Assembly (NCBI GenBank): GCA_022565335.1
Contig: JAIUMY010000001.1
Span: forward strand, 87,856 to 151,855
Reading direction: 5' to 3'
Length of the DNA: 64,000 nucleotides
Source: Opitutales bacterium
GTDB taxonomy: Bacteria; Verrucomicrobiota; Verrucomicrobiia; Opitutales; T3Sed10-336
The notes under the pieces were generated by a model. It had not been told where the DNA came from. It was given only the letters and a program-made list of their open reading frames with translations, and searched no databases. The position numbers and the translations under genes are program-made. Shown here one piece after another: positions 543 to 43,209 of the stretch. Numbering within the stretch: position 1 is the stretch's first letter; the number at the start of each line of letters is the position of its first letter.

Positions 543-896
543 TCAAAAAAGAGTTTTCCATTCCGGTTCCCGAAAACCGACGGCACCGCCCTTGTTGGTT
601 AAAAGGAAGGGACGCTTGACCAGATTTCCGTTGCTTTCCAGGAGGGCAAAAGCTTCGTCTGTGGACATTTCTGAGAGCTTATCCTTCAACCCAAGAGCCC
701 GGTAATCCATCCCGGAGGTATTGAAAAGCTTACGGATTTCGCCGTTTTTATGCCTGAGCATTTGCGCTAATTCAGATTGCGTCGGCGGGGTTTCCCGAAT
801 GGGCTTTTCCTCAAAAGGAAGGCCCTGGCGCCTCAACCAGTCGGTAGCTTTCCGACAAGTGGAGCATTTTTGATAGGTATAGACCGTGGTTCCCAT
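543..896 (-). CDS. ArsC/Spx/MgsR-family thioredoxin-fold protein (YffB-like)
   Basis: From ATG 896: MGTTVYTYQKCSTCRKA (CxxC) ... LFNTSGMDYR ... LVKRPFL. The longer N-terminus in the ORF track overlaps the upstream SDR and is not used. Confidence 0.85.
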   Translation of the reverse strand: MGTTVYTYQKCSTCRKATDWLRRQGLPFEEKPIRETPPTQSELAQMLRHKNGEIRKLFNTSGMDYRALGLKDKLSEMSTDEAFALLESNGNLVKRPFLLTNKGGAVGFREPEWKTLF

Positions 897-913
897 AAAT
901 CCGGAAAAAGTTG

Positions 914-1627
914 TTAGAGTGGTCCAAGCTGGGGATTGAGAATGACCTCTTCCATAACAGTGCGGCCATGGAGAATCGAGGCTTGATAAACCACCCGCGC
1001 GATATCCTCGGCCGGCATCATGCGCTCCTCGGGCACTCCGGAACCTTCCCACGAGGGGGAAAAGGTGGGCCCGGGCGCAATGAGAGTGACTTTAATCCCG
1101 TGCTCCTTCATTTCCTCGCGCAACACTCTGGTGAGACCGGTAACCCCAAATTTGGCGGCGCAATAACCGCTCCCCCCCGGATACCCCTGAAGGCCGGCAA
1201 TTGATCCCATGTTAAAGATCTGCCCGGTTTTTCTTTGGACCATCCGTGACAGGAAGGCTTTGGTCACCAAAAAGACTGACCGCAGATTGGCCCCATAGAG
1301 TTTTTCGAAATCCTCCAAGCTGAAGTCCAAAAAACTATGAGGCACAAAACAGCCTGCATTGTTCACCAATATATCGGGAGTTCCCAGGGAGGAATTTACC
1401 TCGCGGGCAAGTTTTTCCACCTCCTCCGGACGGGTCACATCACAGGGGAAAACCTCCGCCCTTACCCCTTTAGCCGCAATCTCGCTCTGAACCTTTTTCA
1501 GGTTCTCGCAGTTACGAGCCACCAAGGCAAGATGAACGGAAGGATGTTGGCTAAATTCCCTGGCTATCGCCGCGCCTATTCCCTGGCTCGCCCCGGTGAT
1601 GAGGATGGTCTTCACTTGATTGGACAT
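914..1627 (-). CDS. SDR-family oxidoreductase, putative sepiapterin reductase (Chlorobium-type)
   Basis: Classical SDR motifs TGASQGIG, NNAG and YCAAK. The C-terminus MMPAEDIA...RTVMEEVILNPQLGPL resembles the Chlorobium tepidum sepiapterin reductase as I recall it. It lies 4 nt downstream of folE2. Family is secure; the specific function is inferred. Confidence 0.8.
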   Translation of the reverse strand: MSNQVKTILITGASQGIGAAIAREFSQHPSVHLALVARNCENLKKVQSEIAAKGVRAEVFPCDVTRPEEVEKLAREVNSSLGTPDILVNNAGCFVPHSFLDFSLEDFEKLYGANLRSVFLVTKAFLSRMVQRKTGQIFNMGSIAGLQGYPGGSGYCAAKFGVTGLTRVLREEMKEHGIKVTLIAPGPTFSPSWEGSGVPEERMMPAEDIARVVYQASILHGRTVMEEVILNPQLGPL

Positions 1628-1631
1628 AAAA

Positions 1632-2627
1632 TCAGCAAATCAAGTCCCGAAAATCCTCCATGTTTCCGGTAAATCCGCCGGGTATCCCCTTGGCAATCAT
1701 GGAGACAGCGTCATGGCTATGGAGGGATTCCAAATGCGCACAGGCGATTTCAAAATCGAGAATCCGGGGATCAGCGTCCAATTGCTCGTAGACCAAGCGC
1801 GCCGCATCCTCGACAAACTTGATACTGGCTCCGTTCATCTCGGCAAAGGCTTGCTCATCCTCCCGCTTAACCATGACCTGGGTTTCGGTCTGCAAGGCGG
1901 TGAGACAATGGCGTTGCAAGTCCTCAATGGGCATTTCCGCCTGCTCGGACAGAGCGACCCGAACACGGGCTTTGCTACGCTGCGAATGCGGAATTGCATA
2001 GATATTGCGGACCTCCCGGGCATGCTCCGCTAATTCCGCTGAACAGGGGCAGGCGGAGGAATACACATAGTCGAAATGAATGATTTTTCGAAAGTCCCCA
2101 TCGCGGTTCAAAATCCCCTCAAAGGCCACATCGTAATACTGATAGCCCTCCAAGTTGCTGCGCAGACTGGTTTGTAGGATGGGATAGGAAAAAGAGAGTT
2201 TGATACGGGCATCCAACGAATCGATGGTTTCCCGATAGTGCTCAACAATTTCCTGCAGGATATCCAGAGAGAAAGTGGCGTCCTTGTAGTCATAGAAGGA
2301 ACGCATAATTCGCGACATATTGATCCCCTTACGGGAGGCTTCCAAGGATACCGTTCCGGTCACACTGACCTCCAATACCAAAGGATCCTGCCCCGGGCGG
2401 GCAAACTTGAGAGGCAGACGGAAGTTGGAAATTCCCACCTGTTGGATCCCTACCCGCGCCCCCTGAATATGGGAAGCGGCCGCGTTTTGCATGTCAGGCA
2501 TACTTTCCCGGTACTCCGGGGAAATCTTAAAATTTTTATCGTAATTTCTAGTCATAAGTACATCCGACAAGGTCTCCGGATGATCGGTTTGGTGCAAATA
2601 CATTTTAGGTTTGAGTAGTGTAGACAT
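1632..2627 (-). CDS. folE2: GTP cyclohydrolase IB (FolE2/MptA family)
   Basis: Motifs [54 protein letters not shown] and ESLHSHDA. Start uncertain (TTG 2645 or ATG 2627). Confidence 0.92.
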
Positions 2628-2654
2628 GATGATGGTCCTTACCAAGTTGATTTT

Positions 2655-3128
2655 TCATTCACCGTAAAATTCAGCAAAGTTTCGCTCTGTTTCATACAAA
2701 CGTATCCGAAACAATTTTCCTTTCCCCAATCTTTTCTCCAACTGGCGCCAGAAGGCGATCACCAGATTCTCCGCCGAAGGGATAATACCTTTGAGAAAAT
2801 CGACTTCCAAATTTAAATTCCGATGATCACATTTCTCGACGATCTCCTCGTTGATGACCGTCTTAAGGCGGCCCAAATCAATGACGTAGCCGGTTTGCGG
2901 GTCAGGTTCACCCTTTAACGAAACCTCTAGGGTGTAATTGTGTCCATGCCACAGGGCATTGTTACACGACCCGTACTGCTCAGCGTTCCAACTGGATGGG
3001 AAATCCGTATTCTCCAAACGATGAGCGGCATTGAAATGCACCTTCCGCGTCACCACAACTTGTCCGGACAGGGATTTGTTGGTCTGGACAGGAGTGGGGA
3101 TTTCAGAGGGATGTGGCATTATGGACAT
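2655..3128 (-). CDS. 6-pyruvoyl-tetrahydropterin synthase family (T-fold), PTPS-II-type C-x5-HGH signature
   Basis: FNAAHRL, CNNALWHGHNY (2940-2966), TGYVIDL, DHRNLN, PSAENL and LYETERN. The C-x5-HGH spacing matches animal-type PTPS rather than QueD (C-x3-HGH). Confidence 0.9.
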   Translation of the reverse strand: MSIMPHPSEIPTPVQTNKSLSGQVVVTRKVHFNAAHRLENTDFPSSWNAEQYGSCNNALWHGHNYTLEVSLKGEPDPQTGYVIDLGRLKTVINEEIVEKCDHRNLNLEVDFLKGIIPSAENLVIAFWRQLEKRLGKGKLFRIRLYETERNFAEFYGE

Positions 3129-3465
3129 GGGGAACAGTGAAGGGAAAGACCTTCCGGGGTCAAACGGTCAAGAATATTTTTTAGATTTTTTTTGCGAAAA
3201 AGCAATAATAGAAACCCCTGCGCTTACCAAGCTCCCAGGGCAGACCTAAGCCCAGGGAAAGCGGTTTCCCTCGAAACGGTTCGGGATTCAAGGCAAAGCA
3301 ATACCCTTTCGGGGAGGAAAATACCTCTTTGAAAAAGTCCTGGAACCAAGAATTTTTCATCTTTTGAAAGATTGCGCTTGAAAATAAGCCCTGAAAAGAG
3401 GAGAACCATCTCTTTTGATCGTCTGCCGAAGTGCCGGTAACACCTAGAAATTCAACTAATCGTTC

Positions 3466-5229
3466 ATGCAGAGTTTTTCAGAGCAGTGTCTCGACATGGC
3501 CCGTTCCATTTTGGGTCATAACCTTAACGCCATCAATCCTGATGGAACCATAAGCCCTATCGAAGGTGAGCCCTCCCGACTAGACGAGTCTGGTCACGCC
3601 GCTCTGGCAATTGGTGAGTTCTTTCGGGCCACCGGGGAAACAAACCTGGAGGAATTTGATCTCATCGACCTCTCGGCACGCTGCATCACGCAGCAGGCTT
3701 TCCGCGAACCGCCACAGGAAAACGGTCTCGCTTTCGCCGCCCTCGGACTCCTGTCCTTTGGTCCGGCCAAGGAACGCAATCCTGTCTGGGAGCGTCTGGT
3801 CGAACAGACCCGGGAACAATTGGACCGCCTTCTTTTGGCGCGCAGCGATTACACCAACCACTGGCAGGCCTTCAACATCGCCAAGGCGGTGACCCGTTTT
3901 AGCATGGGGCTTTCCAAGAAGGACGAAACCGGCAAGCTCATCGACCGTTTCCTGGAGCGCATTGGGCAAAAAAGCTCGAACAATTTCTTTGACGACGGCT
4001 CCGAAACGATCGGCGGGACTTTCAATATTTACGGGGTTCTCAGTTTTGTCTTCATCCGCCAGGCCTTGCAATTGCATGCCAACCTGAATTTACGTGATCG
4101 CAAGCTTCCGAGTTTGCGCACTTTCGGGGAAAAATACCTCAAACTTCTTCCCGACCTGGTTCGTGAGGATGGCTTGGGGTGGAGTTATGGCCGGGGTCTT
4201 GGACTCTATGGCCAAATGCACCTGATCAGTTTGATTCTGCAGGGCATGCGTGACGGATGGATCGGAGCCGACAAATGGGAACAATACTCCGATCTCCTGC
4301 GTCGTCTTTTCCAATTCTTTTTCGTCAACTTCCTCGATCAGGAAAACGGCTATGTAGTCATCCGTGACGGCGAACGTGACACCATCGAGGAACATACCAC
4401 CCGCATGGGCAATTTCGATGCGGCCCGTTACCTCTGTCAGTGGTCCCGTCTCAGCCGCACCTTAAAAAGCCCTGCGGGAGCCACCAAACCCAAAAGCCCC
4501 ACCCGGGCCACCGGAAAATTCGTGGTTTTTGACAAATCCGCCCGCAAGGAGCAAGGGGTTTTCCTGTATCGTAATCCGGATTCCGGTTTACATCTGCAAT
4601 TGCCTCTATCCAGTCAGAACGGCAGTGGACTGGCCTCCACTCTGGCCTTCCCCCATGCCCAGGGCATCTTTGATTGGCCGGTAAATGCCTACCTGCCTGT
4701 TCTTGTACCGGAACTCAGTGTGGACGGCAAAAAATTTGTCCCCAGCTTTTACGGCAAACGTTGCGTCACCGGACTCGGCCTTCGCAACTCTTTTTATTTC
4801 CGCTACGAACAACCAGAGTGGATCACCAAGGATGAGGAAGTTGTCAACGGCCTCGGTTCGGTCAAAGTAAACTGGACTTTCAGTGGAGACAAAATCACCA
4901 GTGAATTCGCCTACACCGTAAAACAGAAGGTACAAATTGACTCCATGCGCTACTGCATGGCTCTCGCCTACCCCCATTCGACCTACACCTCCCCCAACAG
5001 CCTTGCCCTCGGTGCCGAAGGTCATCGTTGCAATGTTGAGAAAGACGATTTTCTGGCTACGTGGAAAGATACCGAAGTGGTCAGTGATGATCCTCAATTT
5101 AAAACCAACTGGGGCAATATTCATTATCTCCAGGTGCTGTCCCGGGACCATCCGCTAATTATGCGTCCGGGCAATGTTTACCGACTAACCGTTTCCTTCG
5201 AGCCCGATATTACTCTCGCCGAGGCCTGA
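3466..5229 (+). CDS. Conserved-looking hypothetical protein, 587 aa, no signal peptide
   Basis: Long clean ORF with coding-like composition. Its helical N-terminal two thirds and beta-rich C-terminal third are judged from the residue pattern. It ends 10 nt before hisF. Confidence 0.8.
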
Positions 5230-6041: not shown

Positions 6042-7292
6042 CTACTGAGCTAGGGTGAGAAGAGTGTTCCGCAAAGTCCAGGCGGTGGTTTGCCCGGCGG
6101 CTTTACGCAGGATCTTTTTACGCAGTTCCTCCGCCCCGGAAACTTGCAAGCGCTCCGCCGCATCAGCAAAATGCAAGGCCACCCTCAGACGGTCAGAGGT
6201 ATAGGCTTTTTCCGCATAAGCCAACAGATTCGCCTTGTCTCCCGACAACTCTGCCAGACATTGGGCTTCTTCAGCCGGATGTAAGGGTACCAAATCACGG
6301 GTCTCGCCGGACCAAAAGCCGGTTTCCCCATAAGCAAAAGCCAAAACGGCGTGCTCCACTTCCCCATAGAGACAGCGCATTTCAGGATCATGGGTCAAGT
6401 GTTCGGGAAGTTTGACCCTAACCCGGCAATCATGAGCCGATGCGCCTTTGGCCAGGAGGCGGAGGGTTTCCTCGTAAAGAAAACGAACGGCCTCGGCATT
6501 TTTGCGGAGTTTTTGCCCGATTCTTGCCCGGCCCGACAAAGGTTCACCGTGGCAGGGAAGCAGATGTTCCGGCGGATTCTCCGCCAAAGCCTCTACCGCC
6601 TCCAACCAAGGCAAAGGATCACGGTACCGACCTCCCCCCAAACTTCCGAAATTGGGAAATTGGTCGGTGACCAAATTATGAGCGACCAGATTCAGGGAAG
6701 GAAAACGAAAAGCCAAGCCATCGTCGGTATCAAAAAAGCCTTTTTCGACCCGAATGGGGAGGCCGGCAAATTCCCCTTCTGCCCCGGGCAAAAGAGCATG
6801 AGTCAACTCAGCAAAAGCGCGGCCATCACGCCAAGCGCGGGCCGGGGCATGAACTGCCCCCTCTCCCTCCCGGGGAAGTCGCGAACCATTTTCCAAACTC
6901 ACCCGGTAGTGCCAGACCTCTTTGGCCAAGTCCCGGCTTTTCTGCAAATTCACCGGGATACGGGGATGCCCAATGATGGCGACCTCCTGTTTTTCCTCCA
7001 GCTCCTTTTCCAAAAGACCGCCGAGCCCTCCGGAGTAATGTGAATGCGTCAATAAAACCGCTCGAATCGGCTCTTCACTCACCTTCCGAACCATCCGGCG
7101 CAGGGCCCTGCCCTCTTCCCAACTGCTGCCAGCATCCACCACCACCAAACCGCCGTGTCCACGGACAAAGTGGCAATTGGCTAAACTCATCCCACGAACC
7201 GTGTAGATCCCCGGACAGGTTTCAATAATTTTGGGCTCGAGCGCTTTTCGGTACTGCTCAAGATCAGGATGCAAGGTGGGATCGTTAGGCAT
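6042..7292 (-). CDS. Metallo-beta-lactamase-fold alkyl/aryl sulfatase-like protein (SdsA1/BDS1 family) with dimerisation domain, no SCP2 domain
   Basis: GIYTVRG..LAN, LVVVDAG, IRAVLLTHSH, FPNFGSLGGGRYRDP, LLPCHGEP and YGEVEH..W.G pattern. The metal motif is altered (see findings). Confidence 0.75.
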   Translation of the reverse strand: MPNDPTLHPDLEQYRKALEPKIIETCPGIYTVRGMSLANCHFVRGHGGLVVVDAGSSWEEGRALRRMVRKVSEEPIRAVLLTHSHYSGGLGGLLEKELEEKQEVAIIGHPRIPVNLQKSRDLAKEVWHYRVSLENGSRLPREGEGAVHAPARAWRDGRAFAELTHALLPGAEGEFAGLPIRVEKGFFDTDDGLAFRFPSLNLVAHNLVTDQFPNFGSLGGGRYRDPLPWLEAVEALAENPPEHLLPCHGEPLSGRARIGQKLRKNAEAVRFLYEETLRLLAKGASAHDCRVRVKLPEHLTHDPEMRCLYGEVEHAVLAFAYGETGFWSGETRDLVPLHPAEEAQCLAELSGDKANLLAYAEKAYTSDRLRVALHFADAAERLQVSGAEELRKKILRKAAGQTTAWTLRNTLLTLAQ

Positions 7293-7331: not shown

Positions 7332-10300
7332 CTATTCGACGGACAAGCGAACCGCCTCCGAGTGGCTATTGAATTCCGGAGCATAAAAGGACTGCAGAGT
7401 GGCTATTCCACTGGAAAACTCACCCCGATGGCGGACCAAGTTGGAGTATTCAAACACATGCGTGCCCCGCGGCAGACGCTCGAAATAAAAATGACTGGCG
7501 GTATCGCGGGTGCTCTCGTAATACCACAGCCCATCCTGCGAGCGGTGACCACTCAATACATTGACCGGCTCCAGCCCACTGCCACGTCGATCCTTGAGAT
7601 GGACAAAATCCATATCCCGGTCGACGCGGATCACCAACCGGGAGACCACTTCCTGGCCAACCTCCAAGGGCCCATCGATTTCCACCAGCGTCGAGCCCTC
7701 CGGGCCGATTTGCCGCCGCAACAACTGCTTTTCCACCTGTAAAGGGGTTTCGGTGTGCGCTTTGATCTCGTCCAGGTCCTCCCAGTATTGCCAGTGCACG
7801 CTGCCCCAGGAAACGCCTTCATCGGGCTTGGAAGTCAGAATCTCTCCCATTTCCGGCCGCACTTCCGCCGCCGGATAGTTTTTTTCGTAGAAACCGGTTC
7901 CGGCCTCCACCCCTTCCGGCTCAATCCATTTATCCCCCAGCCGAACTCTCACCACCTCATCGGAGGCCAACCAATCACTGCCGCGCCGCAACAGAGCATA
8001 CACCGCATCAGCGGTTTCCCGGGTAGTTCGCCAAGCTTGCACCTGCCGTTGCTTCAAGAGCCAGGTGCGGGCTCCATCGACATATTTCTGATCGTCGGCG
8101 ATCTCCTCAAAAGCCTCGATCATCACCACCTGCGCGTCCACCGGTTGGCCAAACCATCGTGGCAAATCCCTTGCCCGACTCCAATAGATTCCCAGTTCCT
8201 TATCCTCAAAGGCTTGTTCGCGCAAACTGCGCAAAATCCGCTCCGGCAACTCCCGATCCAGCGTCCGCCAATCACGATGACGCACCATTCGGTGATACAC
8301 CAAGGCTAACTGTGCCATCTCCTGGGGATTCAGGCGCGTCCAATCCTCCAAGGCTTTCTCCAACCAAAAGGCATAGGCTTCACGGTGTTCCGCCCCGACG
8401 GGATGCTTCTCCTGAAAAAAGCTGCGGGCATACAAATGCTGCACTTCGTGCTGACCGAGGTAGGCGCGTTCCAAATTGCCCCGATCCTTCAATCGTTCAT
8501 ACCGTTCCGTCAAATTTCGGTCCAAGGGAGCCCAGGCCTTTAACGCCAACGATAAATCAGGATCCACCCCAAGATGTTGCAGCTTACCGAAACCGGTAAC
8601 GATCGAAAGAGTGATCTGCGGACTCCCCCGCCCCCCGGGAAACCACGGCCAAAGCCCGTCTTCTCTTTGCCATTCGGCAAGATTTTCCATAGCCCGGGAA
8701 CCTTCCCGCGCCAAACGCTCTTTTTGAAAAAAATTGCCCAGCAGTTGCCGCCGCTCGGACTCATCCTGTCCGCGTCGCAACCAAGGGGTTTCTTCCAGGG
8801 CAATTTGCCGCAAATCTTCATTGCGCTCCAGCGGACTTTTCAACACCTCCGCATCCTCAGCCCGCCATAGGCGGAAGACCCTTTCCACTTTAGGATCGGT
8901 TTGCGCAATATGGGCCGCCAGTTGATTGGCATAAAAACGCCGGAATTCCACATCCGCCGAGCGGTGTTCGCTCTCCATCAAATACGGCAACGACAAAACC
9001 GCCAACCAAGCGGGCTGGGAGGTCATCTGCACGGTGAGCCCCTGGTGTCGCAAAGTATCCGATTCGCCACTACCAAGAAGACTCGCGAAAGAAAAGCGTT
9101 TCTCGCCCTTTCCCCGCAAGGGAAGAGGCAAGGACTCGGTCAGGAGGATTCGCCGCGGCAAGACGGGCAGGTACCCTTCTTCCCCGTCCGATACCCGGCG
9201 GGAAGCGGCAACCGTCCGGTAAACCAGGAACTCCTCCCCTTCGGGCAATTCGATTTCCCAGAAGAAGGTTCGCGATTCCTCCGCCGGAATGGAAAAAGAC
9301 TGCACCGTTTCCTCATTCCCCAAAGCCTCATCCCGCGAGGCCATATCCCGGGCCCGGAAAAACTCCAGACGCACTTGCCCTTTTACCCGCTGCTTGGACT
9401 GGTTATTCACCTGCACCGGAAAACGAATGGTATCTCCCTCCCGCACAAATCGCGGCGCGAGCGGACGGGCCATCAACTCGCGGGACGTAATTACCGTATC
9501 CTCCAGATACCCCGAGCGCAGATCCTGATCATGGGCATAAGCCATAAACCGCCATTCGGTCAACGCCTCGGGCATGGTGAATTCCCATTCCACCATCCCT
9601 TCTTCATCGGTTTGCAATTGCGGAACGAAAAAGGCCGTTTCCTCCAAATTCCGCCGCAACGACACCACTTCCAAATCCACCTCCGGCATACCTTCTTCTT
9701 CCGTTGCGCCAAAGGTTTCACCCTCTGCCCTTTGCGGTACCGGGGCACTTTCCATCGCCACTTCCGAAGCGGCTGCATCGGCCACCATATCCACTTCGCC
9801 CCCTCGACTCATCATACGGTAGTGATGAGGTCTCGCCACCAACCAAGGAGCCAGGGCGGGGTACTCCCAAGCAATAATATCGCCCCACCGGAGCCGCAAA
9901 CCGTCCGGACGGATTTGGGCAAAGGTCATTTGCCGGGCCGCCGCGGTCCGACTCGAAAAAACCCGATACTGATTGAAAACCCCAAAGTTTTGGGGCCAGG
10001 AATGGGAACGAAACTGATCGAGCGAAGCATCATACAAAGCCGCGACCAACTCCCGTGGCGTCTCGGTGCCGTCCGGACCTTCGATACGAATGCGCCAACG
10101 TTGTTTCTCTCCCGGTTCGAGTTCCGAACGAAAGGTTTCCCACGATACCTGTAACTCCTTGTTGTCCCAGGGAACAGTAATTTGCTGCTGATGCTGATAC
10201 CATCGGTTTTCCCGGAAAAACGTAACCTGCACCAAAAAGCCGCCCCGCAGGTCCTCGGTAATTTCCTTGGTGAGCAAGTACTGAGTCGAACCGGGATCAG

Positions 10301-13300
10301 TCCAATACGCCTTCCGCATCCCACGGTGATCCAGGATTTCAATCAACGCCCGTCCCTCGGAATAGCCCGTTCCCCAGAAAACACGTAACTCCTCCCCTAC
10401 CCGGACCCGCCCGCGTTCGGTTTCGAAATAACTCGGCAAGGGCACCGCAAACGTTTCCGCCTGACGATCCGGAACCACAAAATCAATTTGATGCTCCACC
10501 GCCTCCCCGTAACGATCAACCGCTTCCAGGATCGCCCGATAGGCCCCGGCCGCTAAAGTCATCTCTTCCTCAAAAAGACCTGTTCCCGCCGTTTCGAAGG
10601 AAAACCTTTGCACCACCTCCCCCGCTTCCCAGTCCGCCAACAGGCGACCAATCGCTGAATCGTCTCCCTGCTGGGCGAAAAGATCCTTCCGCTCGACAAC
10701 CTCCGGCCCCTGCAAGGCAAACACCTTGACCACCCCTTCCGCCGAAACGGGACTCGACGCGTGATCGGTCGTTTGGATCTGCAAGGGGAAGGGCTCCCCT
10801 GCCTCTACCCAGCCCTCGATGGGCAGAAAAACACGAGCCTCGATGGCATGATAGGCCAACCGGACGGTTTTTGTTTGCGAGCGGGTTTCGCCGCGGCCGT
10901 CGGTCACTGAAACTTCGATACGATAGGAGAAAATCGGGTTATCCTCAGGCGAAATAGCCGGATCGGGCCGGGCCTCAAAGGAGAGGTCAAAGCTCCCATC
11001 CGCGCGGGTTTCTCCGGTTCCGTTGGCGATCACCTGGGAACGGCTCTGCGGCATCGAACGACCCCGAAAAGACCACCGCCAGGGCGAAAAATGCATCTCC
11101 CGCACCACCTGCCACTCCACCGCACCCCGGCCCACCGCCGCACCGGTATAGGCCCGTGCCTCGCCGGTTATTTCAACGATTTCGCCCAGACGCGGTTGTC
11201 CTTCCGGCGGATCCATCGTCACGCGAAACTGCGGGCGCTTATACTCCTCCACCGAAACCGCTGCCGAGCCCTGAAACCGCCCTTCCAAAGAAAGCGAGAC
11301 ATTCCCCGTCAATCCCTCCCGAGGCGCCACAAAGGCTCCGGCAAAGGAGCCAAAGTCATTCGTTCGCACCGTCTTTCGGGACACCTCCTGCCGATTCGCA
11401 TCGCGCAGTACCACAGTGTACTCCTCATTATCCAGCAGTCGGTAACGCTCACCCCGCCGATCCTGCCAATGCACGATTCCCTTAAAATAAATAGTTTGCC
11501 CTGGGCGATACAAAGAGCGGTCGGTAAAGAAACGTACTACCCGCCGCGGTCCGATACCGTCATGAAATCTCCATACGCTCCAACTTTCCGGCAGAAACAA
11601 AAAGTCCTCGTTGAACTCCGTACTCCAGAAATACCGTCCTCTGGGCAAAGGACTGAAGGAAAACAAACCATCCTCATCACTCCTCCCCTCCTTCACCGTT
11701 TGGCCCCCACCTTCAAGGTTCGTGGCTTGCCAATGAGCCCCCGCAACCGGTTCTCCGGAGTAGGCATCAACCACCAATCCGCCATGAGTTTCCCCTCCAA
11801 ACGCATTCCGGATTATCATTCCCAATTCCGAAACCTGCACGGGCGTTACATAGAGGGGGTTGAAAACGTCCCTCGACGCTAAGGAAAAGTCTTCCTGGGC
11901 CGCCGCCAATAGTAGATAAAACCCCTTATCCAAATCCTTGCCAGCGGTGCTCTGGTAGGTTTTTTCCTGAAAATCCTCCGTCATCGGCAAATCCCAGGCC
12001 CAGGTTTTGATCGGGTTCATCGCCAAAAGGCGTTCACGTCCCAGCGAGCCTTCCCGTAAATGATCCCCGTACCGGACGCCGGGTATGGCCCGGAAAAACG
12101 AACCCTGCCAGGTGAGGTAATCTTCCCACGAAAAGGGAATCAAACGGAAATGAACCTTCTCCAGATTCCGATACGTGACCCGCAATTCATTCTCCAAACG
12201 AGGATTCCACGGAAACTCGGTCTGCACCCGTAAAGACGGTCTTTCGATTTGGATAATTATGCGCTCTCCCCTGCTCTTCACGGCGGTGTCCGCGAACTGG
12301 TCCAAAATCTTTTGCCCCAGTTCACGGGCCCGCACCAAATCTTCTTCCTCCGCCCGATACCATTCCGCCAAATCATACCAGGCCCAGGCGGTTATCTCCC
12401 GATCCTCCCCCGCCTCCGCCAGGCGCTCCAAAGCCGCCGCATACCGCTCCCCCTTGCGCTCCCCGGAGGCCTGATTCCAGCCAAAACGAATCCGCAGCAA
12501 GTCCATATCGGCCAAGGCGGCCATATGACCACGTTCCTGGTGAAACCGCATTCCCTCCTGCAACAAAACCACCGCCCGCACCAAGGGATCCCCGGGCCTC
12601 CCGTCTTCCATCTCCCACGCCAAAAAATCCTCCCGGGTTCCGAAGATCGGATCTTCGGCATCGATACGAAACGTCTCCGCATGCAAGAGCCCGCCCTGTT
12701 CCCCCATCTGATAAAACTCCAGCGCAGTCCGCACGACGAGATCATACCAAGTGGGGGTATAATCGGCCGCCACCGTACCCTTGTGCATAAAATCAAGCTC
12801 CCAAAGCGATTCGGTCTCATGCTCCGCCAGGATCTCCCGATCCCCCAGCACCTCTTGCCAGCGCTGATCGATCTCCCGCAACATCCGGGGCAAGCTCCAG
12901 GTCTCCGGCCCCTCCCCCTCGGCTTCCCCGGCATCGGTTCGCTGCTGAAAACGCCATCGGTTTTGCTGAAAATAATTCTGCCACTGGGTCACCGCCACCA
13001 CTTTGCCAATGGCCTGCCACTCGGGCGGATATGCCTCCACCGCCTCCCGAATCTCCTGTTCCATAACCAGCGGATTACCCTCACGCTGATGCTGCAAATG
13101 GACCCTCCGCAAAAGGGCCTCCATGGCCCGTCCATACTCTCCCTCGGCCACCGCCGCCTCCTCAGCCTTGCGAAATTCCGCCATCGCCGTTTGCGGCAAA
13201 GCCTCGGACAACGCCTCCTGCGCCGCCTCCCAGGGCGAGACCGGGTTATCGGCACAAGCCGTTACCAACATCAAGAGGAGACAGAAAAAACTTCCGAAAA

Positions 13301-13319
13301 ACAAACGAAGCGGGGTCAT
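7332..13319 (-). CDS. Alpha-2-macroglobulin family lipoprotein (MG2 domain), 1995 aa
   Basis: Lipobox LVTAC. Motifs FFTDRSLYRPGQT, VEEYKRPQF, LRRNLEETAFF, FTMPEALTEWRF, WPWFPGG, W.TTRETADA and FNSHS. The thioester CxEQ position reads SADV. Confidence 0.92.
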   Translation of the reverse strand: MTPLRLFFGSFFCLLLMLVTACADNPVSPWEAAQEALSEALPQTAMAEFRKAEEAAVAEGEYGRAMEALLRRVHLQHQREGNPLVMEQEIREAVEAYPPEWQAIGKVVAVTQWQNYFQQNRWRFQQRTDAGEAEGEGPETWSLPRMLREIDQRWQEVLGDREILAEHETESLWELDFMHKGTVAADYTPTWYDLVVRTALEFYQMGEQGGLLHAETFRIDAEDPIFGTREDFLAWEMEDGRPGDPLVRAVVLLQEGMRFHQERGHMAALADMDLLRIRFGWNQASGERKGERYAAALERLAEAGEDREITAWAWYDLAEWYRAEEEDLVRARELGQKILDQFADTAVKSRGERIIIQIERPSLRVQTEFPWNPRLENELRVTYRNLEKVHFRLIPFSWEDYLTWQGSFFRAIPGVRYGDHLREGSLGRERLLAMNPIKTWAWDLPMTEDFQEKTYQSTAGKDLDKGFYLLLAAAQEDFSLASRDVFNPLYVTPVQVSELGMIIRNAFGGETHGGLVVDAYSGEPVAGAHWQATNLEGGGQTVKEGRSDEDGLFSFSPLPRGRYFWSTEFNEDFLFLPESWSVWRFHDGIGPRRVVRFFTDRSLYRPGQTIYFKGIVHWQDRRGERYRLLDNEEYTVVLRDANRQEVSRKTVRTNDFGSFAGAFVAPREGLTGNVSLSLEGRFQGSAAVSVEEYKRPQFRVTMDPPEGQPRLGEIVEITGEARAYTGAAVGRGAVEWQVVREMHFSPWRWSFRGRSMPQSRSQVIANGTGETRADGSFDLSFEARPDPAISPEDNPIFSYRIEVSVTDGRGETRSQTKTVRLAYHAIEARVFLPIEGWVEAGEPFPLQIQTTDHASSPVSAEGVVKVFALQGPEVVERKDLFAQQGDDSAIGRLLADWEAGEVVQRFSFETAGTGLFEEEMTLAAGAYRAILEAVDRYGEAVEHQIDFVVPDRQAETFAVPLPSYFETERGRVRVGEELRVFWGTGYSEGRALIEILDHRGMRKAYWTDPGSTQYLLTKEITEDLRGGFLVQVTFFRENRWYQHQQQITVPWDNKELQVSWETFRSELEPGEKQRWRIRIEGPDGTETPRELVAALYDASLDQFRSHSWPQNFGVFNQYRVFSSRTAAARQMTFAQIRPDGLRLRWGDIIAWEYPALAPWLVARPHHYRMMSRGGEVDMVADAAASEVAMESAPVPQRAEGETFGATEEEGMPEVDLEVVSLRRNLEETAFFVPQLQTDEEGMVEWEFTMPEALTEWRFMAYAHDQDLRSGYLEDTVITSRELMARPLAPRFVREGDTIRFPVQVNNQSKQRVKGQVRLEFFRARDMASRDEALGNEETVQSFSIPAEESRTFFWEIELPEGEEFLVYRTVAASRRVSDGEEGYLPVLPRRILLTESLPLPLRGKGEKRFSFASLLGSGESDTLRHQGLTVQMTSQPAWLAVLSLPYLMESEHRSADVEFRRFYANQLAAHIAQTDPKVERVFRLWRAEDAEVLKSPLERNEDLRQIALEETPWLRRGQDESERRQLLGNFFQKERLAREGSRAMENLAEWQREDGLWPWFPGGRGSPQITLSIVTGFGKLQHLGVDPDLSLALKAWAPLDRNLTERYERLKDRGNLERAYLGQHEVQHLYARSFFQEKHPVGAEHREAYAFWLEKALEDWTRLNPQEMAQLALVYHRMVRHRDWRTLDRELPERILRSLREQAFEDKELGIYWSRARDLPRWFGQPVDAQVVMIEAFEEIADDQKYVDGARTWLLKQRQVQAWRTTRETADAVYALLRRGSDWLASDEVVRVRLGDKWIEPEGVEAGTGFYEKNYPAAEVRPEMGEILTSKPDEGVSWGSVHWQYWEDLDEIKAHTETPLQVEKQLLRRQIGPEGSTLVEIDGPLEVGQEVVSRLVIRVDRDMDFVHLKDRRGSGLEPVNVLSGHRSQDGLWYYESTRDTASHFYFERLPRGTHVFEYSNLVRHRGEFSSGIATLQSFYAPEFNSHSEAVRLSVE

Positions 13320-42268: not shown

Positions 42269-42353
42269 ACCGCTAAAATGTGAACTCGGCTCTCTTTCCT
42301 TGCCGCGGGAGGGGTCTTGCCTTTTAACACCTATTGGCGATAGTTTTCACGAC

Positions 42354-42716
42354 ATGGATAGCATTCGCTTGGAAAAATTGAGCTTTTACGGTTACCACGG
42401 GGTTTTACCGGAAGAACAGCAACTGGGACAAAGATTTTTAGTGTCGCTGGAGATCTTTGTCGACTTGCGCAAGGCCGGCCAAAGCGACGACCTTTCCCTA
42501 ACTCTCGATTACGGAAAAATTGCCCAAACCACCCAATCGCTGGTTGAGGGAAAACCAGTCCAACTGTTGGAACACCTGGCGACGAATCTCATCGAAACAC
42601 TATTTCATGAATATCCCGCAATGGAGGAGATTCGGGTCTCCATCGACAAACCTTCACCACCCCTCCCCCAAACTTTGGCATCGGTAGGAATTACGCTACG
42701 GCGCAAGAGAATCTGA
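42354..42716 (+). CDS. folB: Dihydroneopterin aldolase
   Basis: YGYHGVLPEE..LGQRF, DDLSLTLDYG, LLEHLA and IDKP. Confidence 0.94.
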   Translation: MDSIRLEKLSFYGYHGVLPEEQQLGQRFLVSLEIFVDLRKAGQSDDLSLTLDYGKIAQTTQSLVEGKPVQLLEHLATNLIETLFHEYPAMEEIRVSIDKPSPPLPQTLASVGITLRRKRI

Positions 42717-42717
42717 T

Positions 42718-43209
42718 ATGGGAGCACCGAGGTCGCCAGAACCAGTCTTGATCGCATTCGGGTCCAATCTAGGCAACCGGAGGAAAAATCTCGAATGGGC
42801 TTTGCAACAACTCTCCAAATGCGAGGGAGTTTCTTGCCTGCATGCCAGCTCTTTTCAAGAAACCGAACCGGTCGGTTATGCCGAGCAACCTCGTTTTCTC
42901 AATGGCGCCGTTTTCTTGAATTTCCACGGTTCGGTGCAAGAATTACTGGCCCTCCTGCAAGCCATTGAAAAGGTCGCGGGAAAGGCAACCCCCTTTCCCA
43001 ACGGCCCCCGCACACTGGACCTCGACATCATTTTCTTCGGATCCCTCGTACACTCCGCTCCCGACCTAACCGTCCCCCATCCCCGTTGGGCCGAACGAAA
43101 TTTCGTGGTCGAACCTCTTCAGGAGATCGCCCACGCTCTCTCCTCCGAAACCTTTCCCCCGGCATGGCAAGCGAAAATCAACGCGGCCGCCGAAAAGCTC
43201 CAAGCTTGA
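42718..43209 (+). CDS. folK: 2-amino-4-hydroxy-6-hydroxymethyldihydropteridine diphosphokinase
   Basis: AFGSNLG, ETEPVG, QPRFLN, GPRTLDLDII, VPHPR and RNFV. Confidence 0.94.
   Translation: MGAPRSPEPVLIAFGSNLGNRRKNLEWALQQLSKCEGVSCLHASSFQETEPVGYAEQPRFLNGAVFLNFHGSVQELLALLQAIEKVAGKATPFPNGPRTLDLDIIFFGSLVHSAPDLTVPHPRWAERNFVVEPLQEIAHALSSETFPPAWQAKINAAAEKLQA

Follow-up and report, generated by a model that had tools for sequence, protein, structure and literature searches.

The first 3.2 kb of a 64,000-nt stretch of DNA from Opitutales bacterium (GCA_022565335.1, contig JAIUMY010000001.1, positions 87,856-151,855 of the forward strand; the whole stretch is called the window here) holds a compact operon for a GTP cyclohydrolase IB (FolE2), a 6-pyruvoyl-tetrahydropterin synthase (PTPS) homologue of the PTPS-II type, and a short-chain dehydrogenase/reductase (SDR) that resembles the sepiapterin reductase (SR) of Chlorobium tepidum. 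We consider it likely that this operon makes a tetrahydrobiopterin (BH4)-type pterin, with FolE2 being shared with folate and queuosine synthesis. The source is a metagenome-assembled genome (MAG) of 3.29 Mb in 196 contigs that is 91.7% complete. A first-pass annotation, made from the sequence of the window, had described four co-oriented and closely packed genes, and this was confirmed: the PTPS, FolE2, SDR and ArsC-family open reading frames are all on the minus strand and separated by 4 to 27 nt, with a gap of 9 or 27 nt between PTPS and FolE2 depending on the start used, 4 nt between FolE2 and SDR, and 17 nt between SDR and the ArsC-family gene.

2655-3128, minus strand: PTPS-II-type 6-pyruvoyl-tetrahydropterin synthase homologue, 157 aa (PF01242, E 4e-35)
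1632-2627, minus strand: GTP cyclohydrolase IB (FolE2), 331 aa from the ATG at 2627 (PF02649, E 2.5e-70; NF010200)
914-1627, minus strand: classical SDR of the NADPH type, Chlorobium-type sepiapterin-reductase-like, 237 aa (adh_short, E 5e-54)
543-896, minus strand: thioredoxin-fold protein of the ArsC/Spx family, 117 aa when read from the ATG, N-terminal CSTC motif (TIGR01617)

FolE2 has an alternative TTG start at 2645 (1632-2645), and genus relatives are annotated with the ATG start that gives 331 aa.

The T-fold protein encoded by the first gene had been proposed to be PTPS-II-like, and this is supported by its motif, its catalytic residues and its position in a tree with animal PTPS. The motif CNNALWHGH (C-x5-HGH) was found exactly where it had been reported, at 2940-2966, and corresponds to residues 55-63 (C55 to H63). 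QueD (PTPS-I; E. coli 4NTM) and QueD2 have the T-fold family and the substrate in common with the window PTPS, but QueD carries C-x3-HGH and QueD2 carries C-x4-HGH with a C-terminal extension, and neither of these spacings is present in the window protein. The zinc ligands H36, H61 and H63, together with C55, D101-H102 and E146, are invariant in eight orthologues. C55, D101-H102 and E146 align to residues of rat and human PTPS, and going by the rat structure we take C55 and D101-H102 to be the catalytic Cys and Asp-His and E146 to be the pterin-anchoring Glu. The best PDB matches are human and rat PTPS (E 5e-30 and 7e-30, 37% identity), with E. coli QueD reaching only ~1e-6. The animal enzymes (rat 1B66, human 3I2B) have the same zinc ligands, the same Cys, Asp-His and Glu, and a motif of the form CNNxxxHGH; in the bacterial proteins HGH is preceded by Trp (CNNxxWHGH) and the N-terminus is extended by ~20 residues.

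A survey of 81 Opitutales genomes separated their COG0720 proteins into three classes, A, B and C, with the window PTPS in class A. In a COG0720 tree limited to Opitutales, animal and E. coli sequences, a long branch with SH-aLRT support of 96 separates class A and its sister group, animal PTPS, from E. coli QueD and from the two QueD classes of the order, B and C. C-x5-HGH occurs in 77 of 78 loci related to the window PTPS and is a published marker of PTPS-II (PMC5041015). A folate bypass of the PTPS-III type was ruled out, both by the motif, which has Ala at the Glu position (A-L-W-HGH), and by the presence of folB and folK, with which there is no need for the bypass. Both genes had been called intact in the first-pass annotation and were located here by family matches and by tblastn with the E. 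coli proteins.

42300-42716, plus strand: folB (PF02152, E 7e-37; tblastn with E. coli FolB)
42718-43209, plus strand: folK (PF01288, E 3e-34; tblastn with E. coli FolK)

These two genes are the folate-branch context that uses the same FolE2 product and lie outside the operon. One further candidate discriminator between QueD and PTPS, Asp versus Asn at the position of E. coli D54, was dropped, as C. elegans PTPS also has Asp.

The SDR is supported as a specific relative of C. tepidum SR (cSR) over its full length, C-terminus included, which bears out an earlier remark on the likeness of the C-termini. Its best PDB match is 2BD0, the cSR structure, with an end-to-end alignment at 35% identity, and the match is reciprocal: 2BD0 as a query against the source genome gives 140 bits for the window SDR and 71 bits for the next paralogue. 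A profile of 23 SDR orthologues scored 221.7 bits on 2BD0 and 185 and 182 bits on the next structures, a margin of 36 bits. The TGxxxGxG motif (T11-G12, G16 and G18), the S142-Y155-K159 triad and the NADPH arginine R38 are invariant (23 to 51 orthologues), and W193, the equivalent of cSR Trp196, is invariant in 51 of 51. References in PMC7520308 describe Phe99 and Trp196 as substrate-positioning residues of cSR, with Trp196 stacking on the substrate.

The FolE2 assignment is clear, with 281.8 bits on NF010200 against a cut-off of 215 and with the MptA and GCH-IV models far below their cut-offs. No match to FolE type IA (PF01227) and no second copy of FolE2 were found in the source genome, so FolE2 is the only GTP cyclohydrolase I of this genome and therefore also serves folate and queuosine synthesis instead of being dedicated to a biopterin pathway. 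The first-pass annotation had regarded the use of FolE2 in place of FolE as unusual; it is the standard cyclohydrolase of the lineage and no oddity. The fourth gene belongs less firmly to the operon than had been suggested. Its product scores 96 bits on TIGR01617 (cut-off 75), its best PDB matches are the uncharacterised ArsC-related proteins 3fz4 and 3gkx, and it is probably co-transcribed with the other three genes. It follows the SDR in the genus relatives (loci L131-L133), which repeat the window exactly, the divergent 587-aa gene on the other side of the operon included, and it is absent from 87 wider loci. Linked to the operon only within the genus, the ArsC-family gene is a passenger or accessory at that level, and the operon is better described as a three-gene unit. 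The divergent gene and the ArsC-family gene were both considered as parts of the pathway and rejected, neither being conserved beside the operon beyond the genus.

Conservation of the three-gene unit was followed in a scan of named genomes that returned at least 574 PTPS relatives. The best 80 are mostly from Opitutales and other Verrucomicrobiota, and also include Rhodothermales, Salinibacter, Balneolaceae and one member of the Phycisphaeraceae. PTPS and FolE2 are adjacent in seven of seven further Opitutales genomes, with the SDR next to them in four. Among the 52 named loci of Verrucomicrobiota, 36 have PTPS-FolE2-SDR, six have PTPS-FolE2 only, three have the SDR without a cyclohydrolase, and six could not be judged because of the shortness of their contigs. 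In genomes of Rhodothermota and in those labelled Bacteroidota, a FolE of type IA (PF01227, E 4e-76) sits between PTPS and SDR, the SDR being found in 10 loci and absent from five; the window PTPS has some of its closest relatives in Rhodothermales, at 55-65% identity. That two non-homologous cyclohydrolases are swapped inside the same triad indicates that the GTP cyclohydrolase I, PTPS and reductase steps have been selected together. The arrangement is not due to chance, and the conserved gene order on which the earlier reading had been made to depend is seen in dozens of Verrucomicrobiota.

Operons of this kind have already been published in bacteria. Zallot 2016 (PMC5041015) shows conserved PTPS-II contexts, where the legend of the figure names Rhodothermus marinus and the abbreviations include FolE, FolE2 and SR, and about 50 bacteria are predicted BH4 makers from the co-occurrence of the PTPS-II motif and SR (PMC5041015). 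FolE has also been found near the C-x5 cluster (PMC5445326). The contexts in the SEED 'PTPS paralogs' subsystem (PMC5041015 Fig. 3B) are like the present one in that genes for a C-x5-HGH PTPS, a GTP cyclohydrolase I and an SDR of the SR type are clustered, and differ from it in that the window comes from Opitutales (Verrucomicrobiota) and has FolE2. The novelty claimed for the pathway in the first-pass annotation is therefore narrower than stated: its type is known, Rhodothermales included, and Verrucomicrobiota are a new lineage for it, as no description of a biopterin pathway in that phylum was found among the papers searched.

If the operon acts as we predict, FolE2 would convert GTP to 7,8-dihydroneopterin triphosphate, the PTPS-II-type enzyme would turn this into 6-pyruvoyl-tetrahydropterin, and the NADPH-dependent Chlorobium-type SR would reduce the side-chain carbonyls to give a tetrahydrobiopterin. 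The FolE2 product would be common to the folate branch (folB and folK) and queuosine synthesis. The C. tepidum enzyme makes L-threo-BH4, and the stereochemistry of the product here could likewise be L-threo. C. tepidum reaches BH4 by the same three enzymatic steps (GTP cyclohydrolase I, PTPS-II and SR), and the catalytic triad and the Trp196 equivalent of its SR are conserved in the window SDR; the differences are that FolE2 replaces FolE here and that the window SDR has no match to Phe99. We infer from sequence what the products actually are, what stereochemistry they have and how the pterin is used. Family assignments, the conservation of residues and of the operon, and the separation from the QueD classes are direct observations.

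Several observations weigh against the operon being a route to BH4. At the position aligned to cSR Phe99 the 51 SDR orthologues have Pro, Gly or Ala, and a conserved Phe or Tyr is found two residues upstream in the same loop. About one fifth of the informative loci have PTPS and GTP cyclohydrolase I without an adjacent SDR, and no alternative reductase was found downstream in the FolE2-only loci. The similarity to rat PTPS has a precedent to consider, since in Synechococcus the more rat-like paralogue (PTPS-I) is not the BH4 enzyme (PMC5041015). No known BH4-using enzyme was found in the source genome when the aromatic amino acid hydroxylase family (PF00351) and the nitric oxide synthase haem-loop motif were looked for; the former is absent genome-wide, extending an earlier remark that no pterin-using hydroxylase was in view, and the latter was not found. 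Some orthologues in the same operon have the QueD-like C-x3-HGH spacing. Finally, the window PTPS is the sole COG0720 gene of its genome despite intact queC, queE, queF, queA and tgt.

A genome search for queuosine genes had been proposed in the first-pass annotation, and the five genes just named were all found, apparently intact, with queC-queE on contig C38 (C38:2220-3601), queF on C20 (20974-21327), queA on C68 and tgt on C3. Searches by tblastn with QueD of E. coli and of classes B and C, run to look for a hidden QueD, returned only the window gene, which is not clustered with queC and queE and yet is the only COG0720 gene available. With the rest of the queuosine genes complete, a QueD role for the window PTPS has to be taken seriously, and it may make 6-carboxy-tetrahydropterin as well or instead. 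Either QueD is missing from the 92%-complete MAG or the window PTPS also supplies QueD activity. The earlier description of a complete biopterin pathway stands as far as the PTPS-II-like protein, the cSR-like SDR and the conserved order are concerned, and is weakened by this possible QueD role.

The survey of Opitutales gives these alternatives some scale. Class A, with C-x5-HGH and next to FolE2, is present in eight of the 81 genomes (the member in genome G022 has C-x3-HGH), whereas classes B and C have C-x3-HGH and lie within 1.5 kb of queC in ~22 of ~31 cases, compared with none of eight for class A. In five of the eight class A genomes there is a QueD of class B or C as well. The other three have queC and no other COG0720 gene: the source genome (92% complete), G057 (97%, three contigs) and G022 (99%). 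From the stated completeness, ~0.2 such absences would be expected among eight if each genome had a separate QueD. Two genomes of one genus, G032 and G060, closed or nearly closed, have queC and no detectable PF01242/COG0720 gene, which suggests salvage or an unrecognised way of obtaining 6-carboxy-tetrahydropterin; within the order, queC can thus occur in any case where no QueD is recognisable. Synteny around the QueD genes of relatives is too little conserved to show a gap or a loss.

The G022 orthologue led to a larger group. In a search from the G022 protein, 59 of the 119 nearest relatives have C-x3-HGH, and all 59 fall into one clade inside class A (SH-aLRT 96), from which a single change from C-x5 to C-x3 is inferred. 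The clade includes Didemnitutus, Oleiharenicola lentus, Opitutus sp. GAS368 and Lacunisphaera (Opitutaceae), and the C-x3-HGH PTPS genes of four loci are as follows.

L035:6049-6531: C-x3-HGH PTPS
L134:6001-6504: C-x3-HGH PTPS
L135:6001-6507: C-x3-HGH PTPS
L136:6001-6489: C-x3-HGH PTPS

In the three contexts inspected (Oleiharenicola lentus, Opitutus sp. GAS368 and a 117-kb ENA contig) PTPS-FolE2-SDR is kept, as is the upstream synteny of a metallo-beta-lactamase (MBL)-fold gene and a pyruvate kinase gene. Opitutus sp. GAS368 has a PDDEXK_3 (PF13366) gene inserted between FolE2 and SDR (L135:7597-7971). Since C-x3 orthologues occur inside the same operon, function in class A cannot be read from the motif alone. 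The rule applied in the first-pass annotation, in which C-x5, C-x3 and E-x2 spacings tell the PTPS types apart, fits the window PTPS with its C-x5 and is made weaker by the nested clade.

These data raise the question of whether class A PTPS may do two jobs, making both 6-pyruvoyl-tetrahydropterin and, as a QueD, 6-carboxy-tetrahydropterin for QueE and QueC, so that a separate QueD is dispensable in some Opitutales. This is compatible with the operon making a BH4-type pterin and extends that reading; we regard it as a tentative proposal that is unlikely overall, though the strongest of the alternatives. Dual PTPS-I/III enzymes are known, and we know of no described dual PTPS-I/II enzyme. The three queC-bearing class A genomes with no other COG0720 gene, well above the expected ~0.2, speak for it, as do the tblastn result, the intact look of the other queuosine genes in the source genome, and a G022 clade that moved to QueD spacing while keeping the operon. 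Promiscuity and tolerance of a shifted Cys are also reported for the family (PMC9894224). The canonical QueD in the other five class A genomes argues the other way, as do G032 and G060 with queC and no COG0720 gene at all, the 8%-incomplete state of a source MAG in 196 contigs, and the Lacunisphaera C-x3 orthologue, annotated 'queD 1', a label that hints at a second copy there.

We think it improbable that the PTPS is simply the QueD of this lineage, in which case FolE2-QueD would be the first two queuosine steps and the SDR an unrelated neighbour. It would account for the absence of further COG0720 genes from a genome that otherwise has the queuosine pathway, QueD and FolE often cluster together (PMC5041015), and NCBI names these PTPS proteins 6-carboxytetrahydropterin synthase, which is a generic family label. 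It does not fit with an SDR that is specifically cSR-like and is kept beside PTPS and GTP cyclohydrolase I in two or more phyla, across the swap between FolE2 and FolE, nor with most class A genomes having a separate, queC-linked QueD and class A never being beside queC. Less plausible still, and rejected here, is a zinc-sparing module in which FolE2 and a PTPS paralogue act as low-zinc replacements like the Zur-regulated FolE2 and QueD2 elsewhere. FolE2 is the zinc-independent type of GTP cyclohydrolase I, and QueD2/FolE2 Zur regulons do exist (PMC9894224), but in this genome there is neither a FolE of type IA nor another COG0720 gene that they could replace, the window PTPS with its C-x5-HGH and 157 aa is unlike QueD2 with its C-x4-HGH and C-terminal extension, and the zinc-dependent FolE fills the same slot of the operon in Rhodothermota.

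The remaining surroundings of the operon were also looked at, beginning with the region presumed to hold its promoter.

3129-3465: divergent intergenic region of 337 bp between the PTPS operon and the 587-aa gene, presumed promoter region
3466-5229, plus strand: 587-aa protein, divergent from the PTPS operon, without a Pfam or NCBIfam match

The intergenic region has conserved blocks in common with genus relatives. No RNA element or riboswitch was found upstream of the operon by Rfam matches at E<=1, promoter-like matches within 3129-3465 were not above the shuffled expectation, and the promoter and terminator scans were uninformative. Further along, an alkyl-sulfatase-like MBL-fold gene (6042-7292) adjoins a minus-strand gene for a 1995-aa alpha-2-macroglobulin-like protein (7332-13319), for which MG2, A2M and bMG10 domains are recorded in the orthologue of relative locus L131.

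As for what the pterin might be used for, the source genome encodes a pterin-4a-carbinolamine dehydratase (C109:6286-6576; PF01329, E 4e-30) in the absence of an aromatic amino acid hydroxylase. The dehydratase gene is near genes for a RibD_C-domain protein and a putative thiE, the latter read from sequence. No pteridine glycosyltransferase was identified, although no search for one, or for an alkylglycerol monooxygenase, was made.

These results bear on how such loci are annotated. The C-x3 versus C-x5 motif rule breaks down inside one orthologous operon, the name '6-carboxytetrahydropterin synthase' is probably a wrong or only partial description of the clade of the window PTPS, and queuosine reconstructions in these genomes have a QueD gap that needs explanation. 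Should class A PTPS prove to have a dual function, the switch from C-x5 to C-x3 in a large Opitutaceae clade would be a natural retuning between two activities. If the operon works as predicted, biopterin-type pterins would be made in many free-living Verrucomicrobiota and Rhodothermota without an aromatic amino acid hydroxylase, which adds to the long-standing question of the role of biopterin-type pterins in bacteria.

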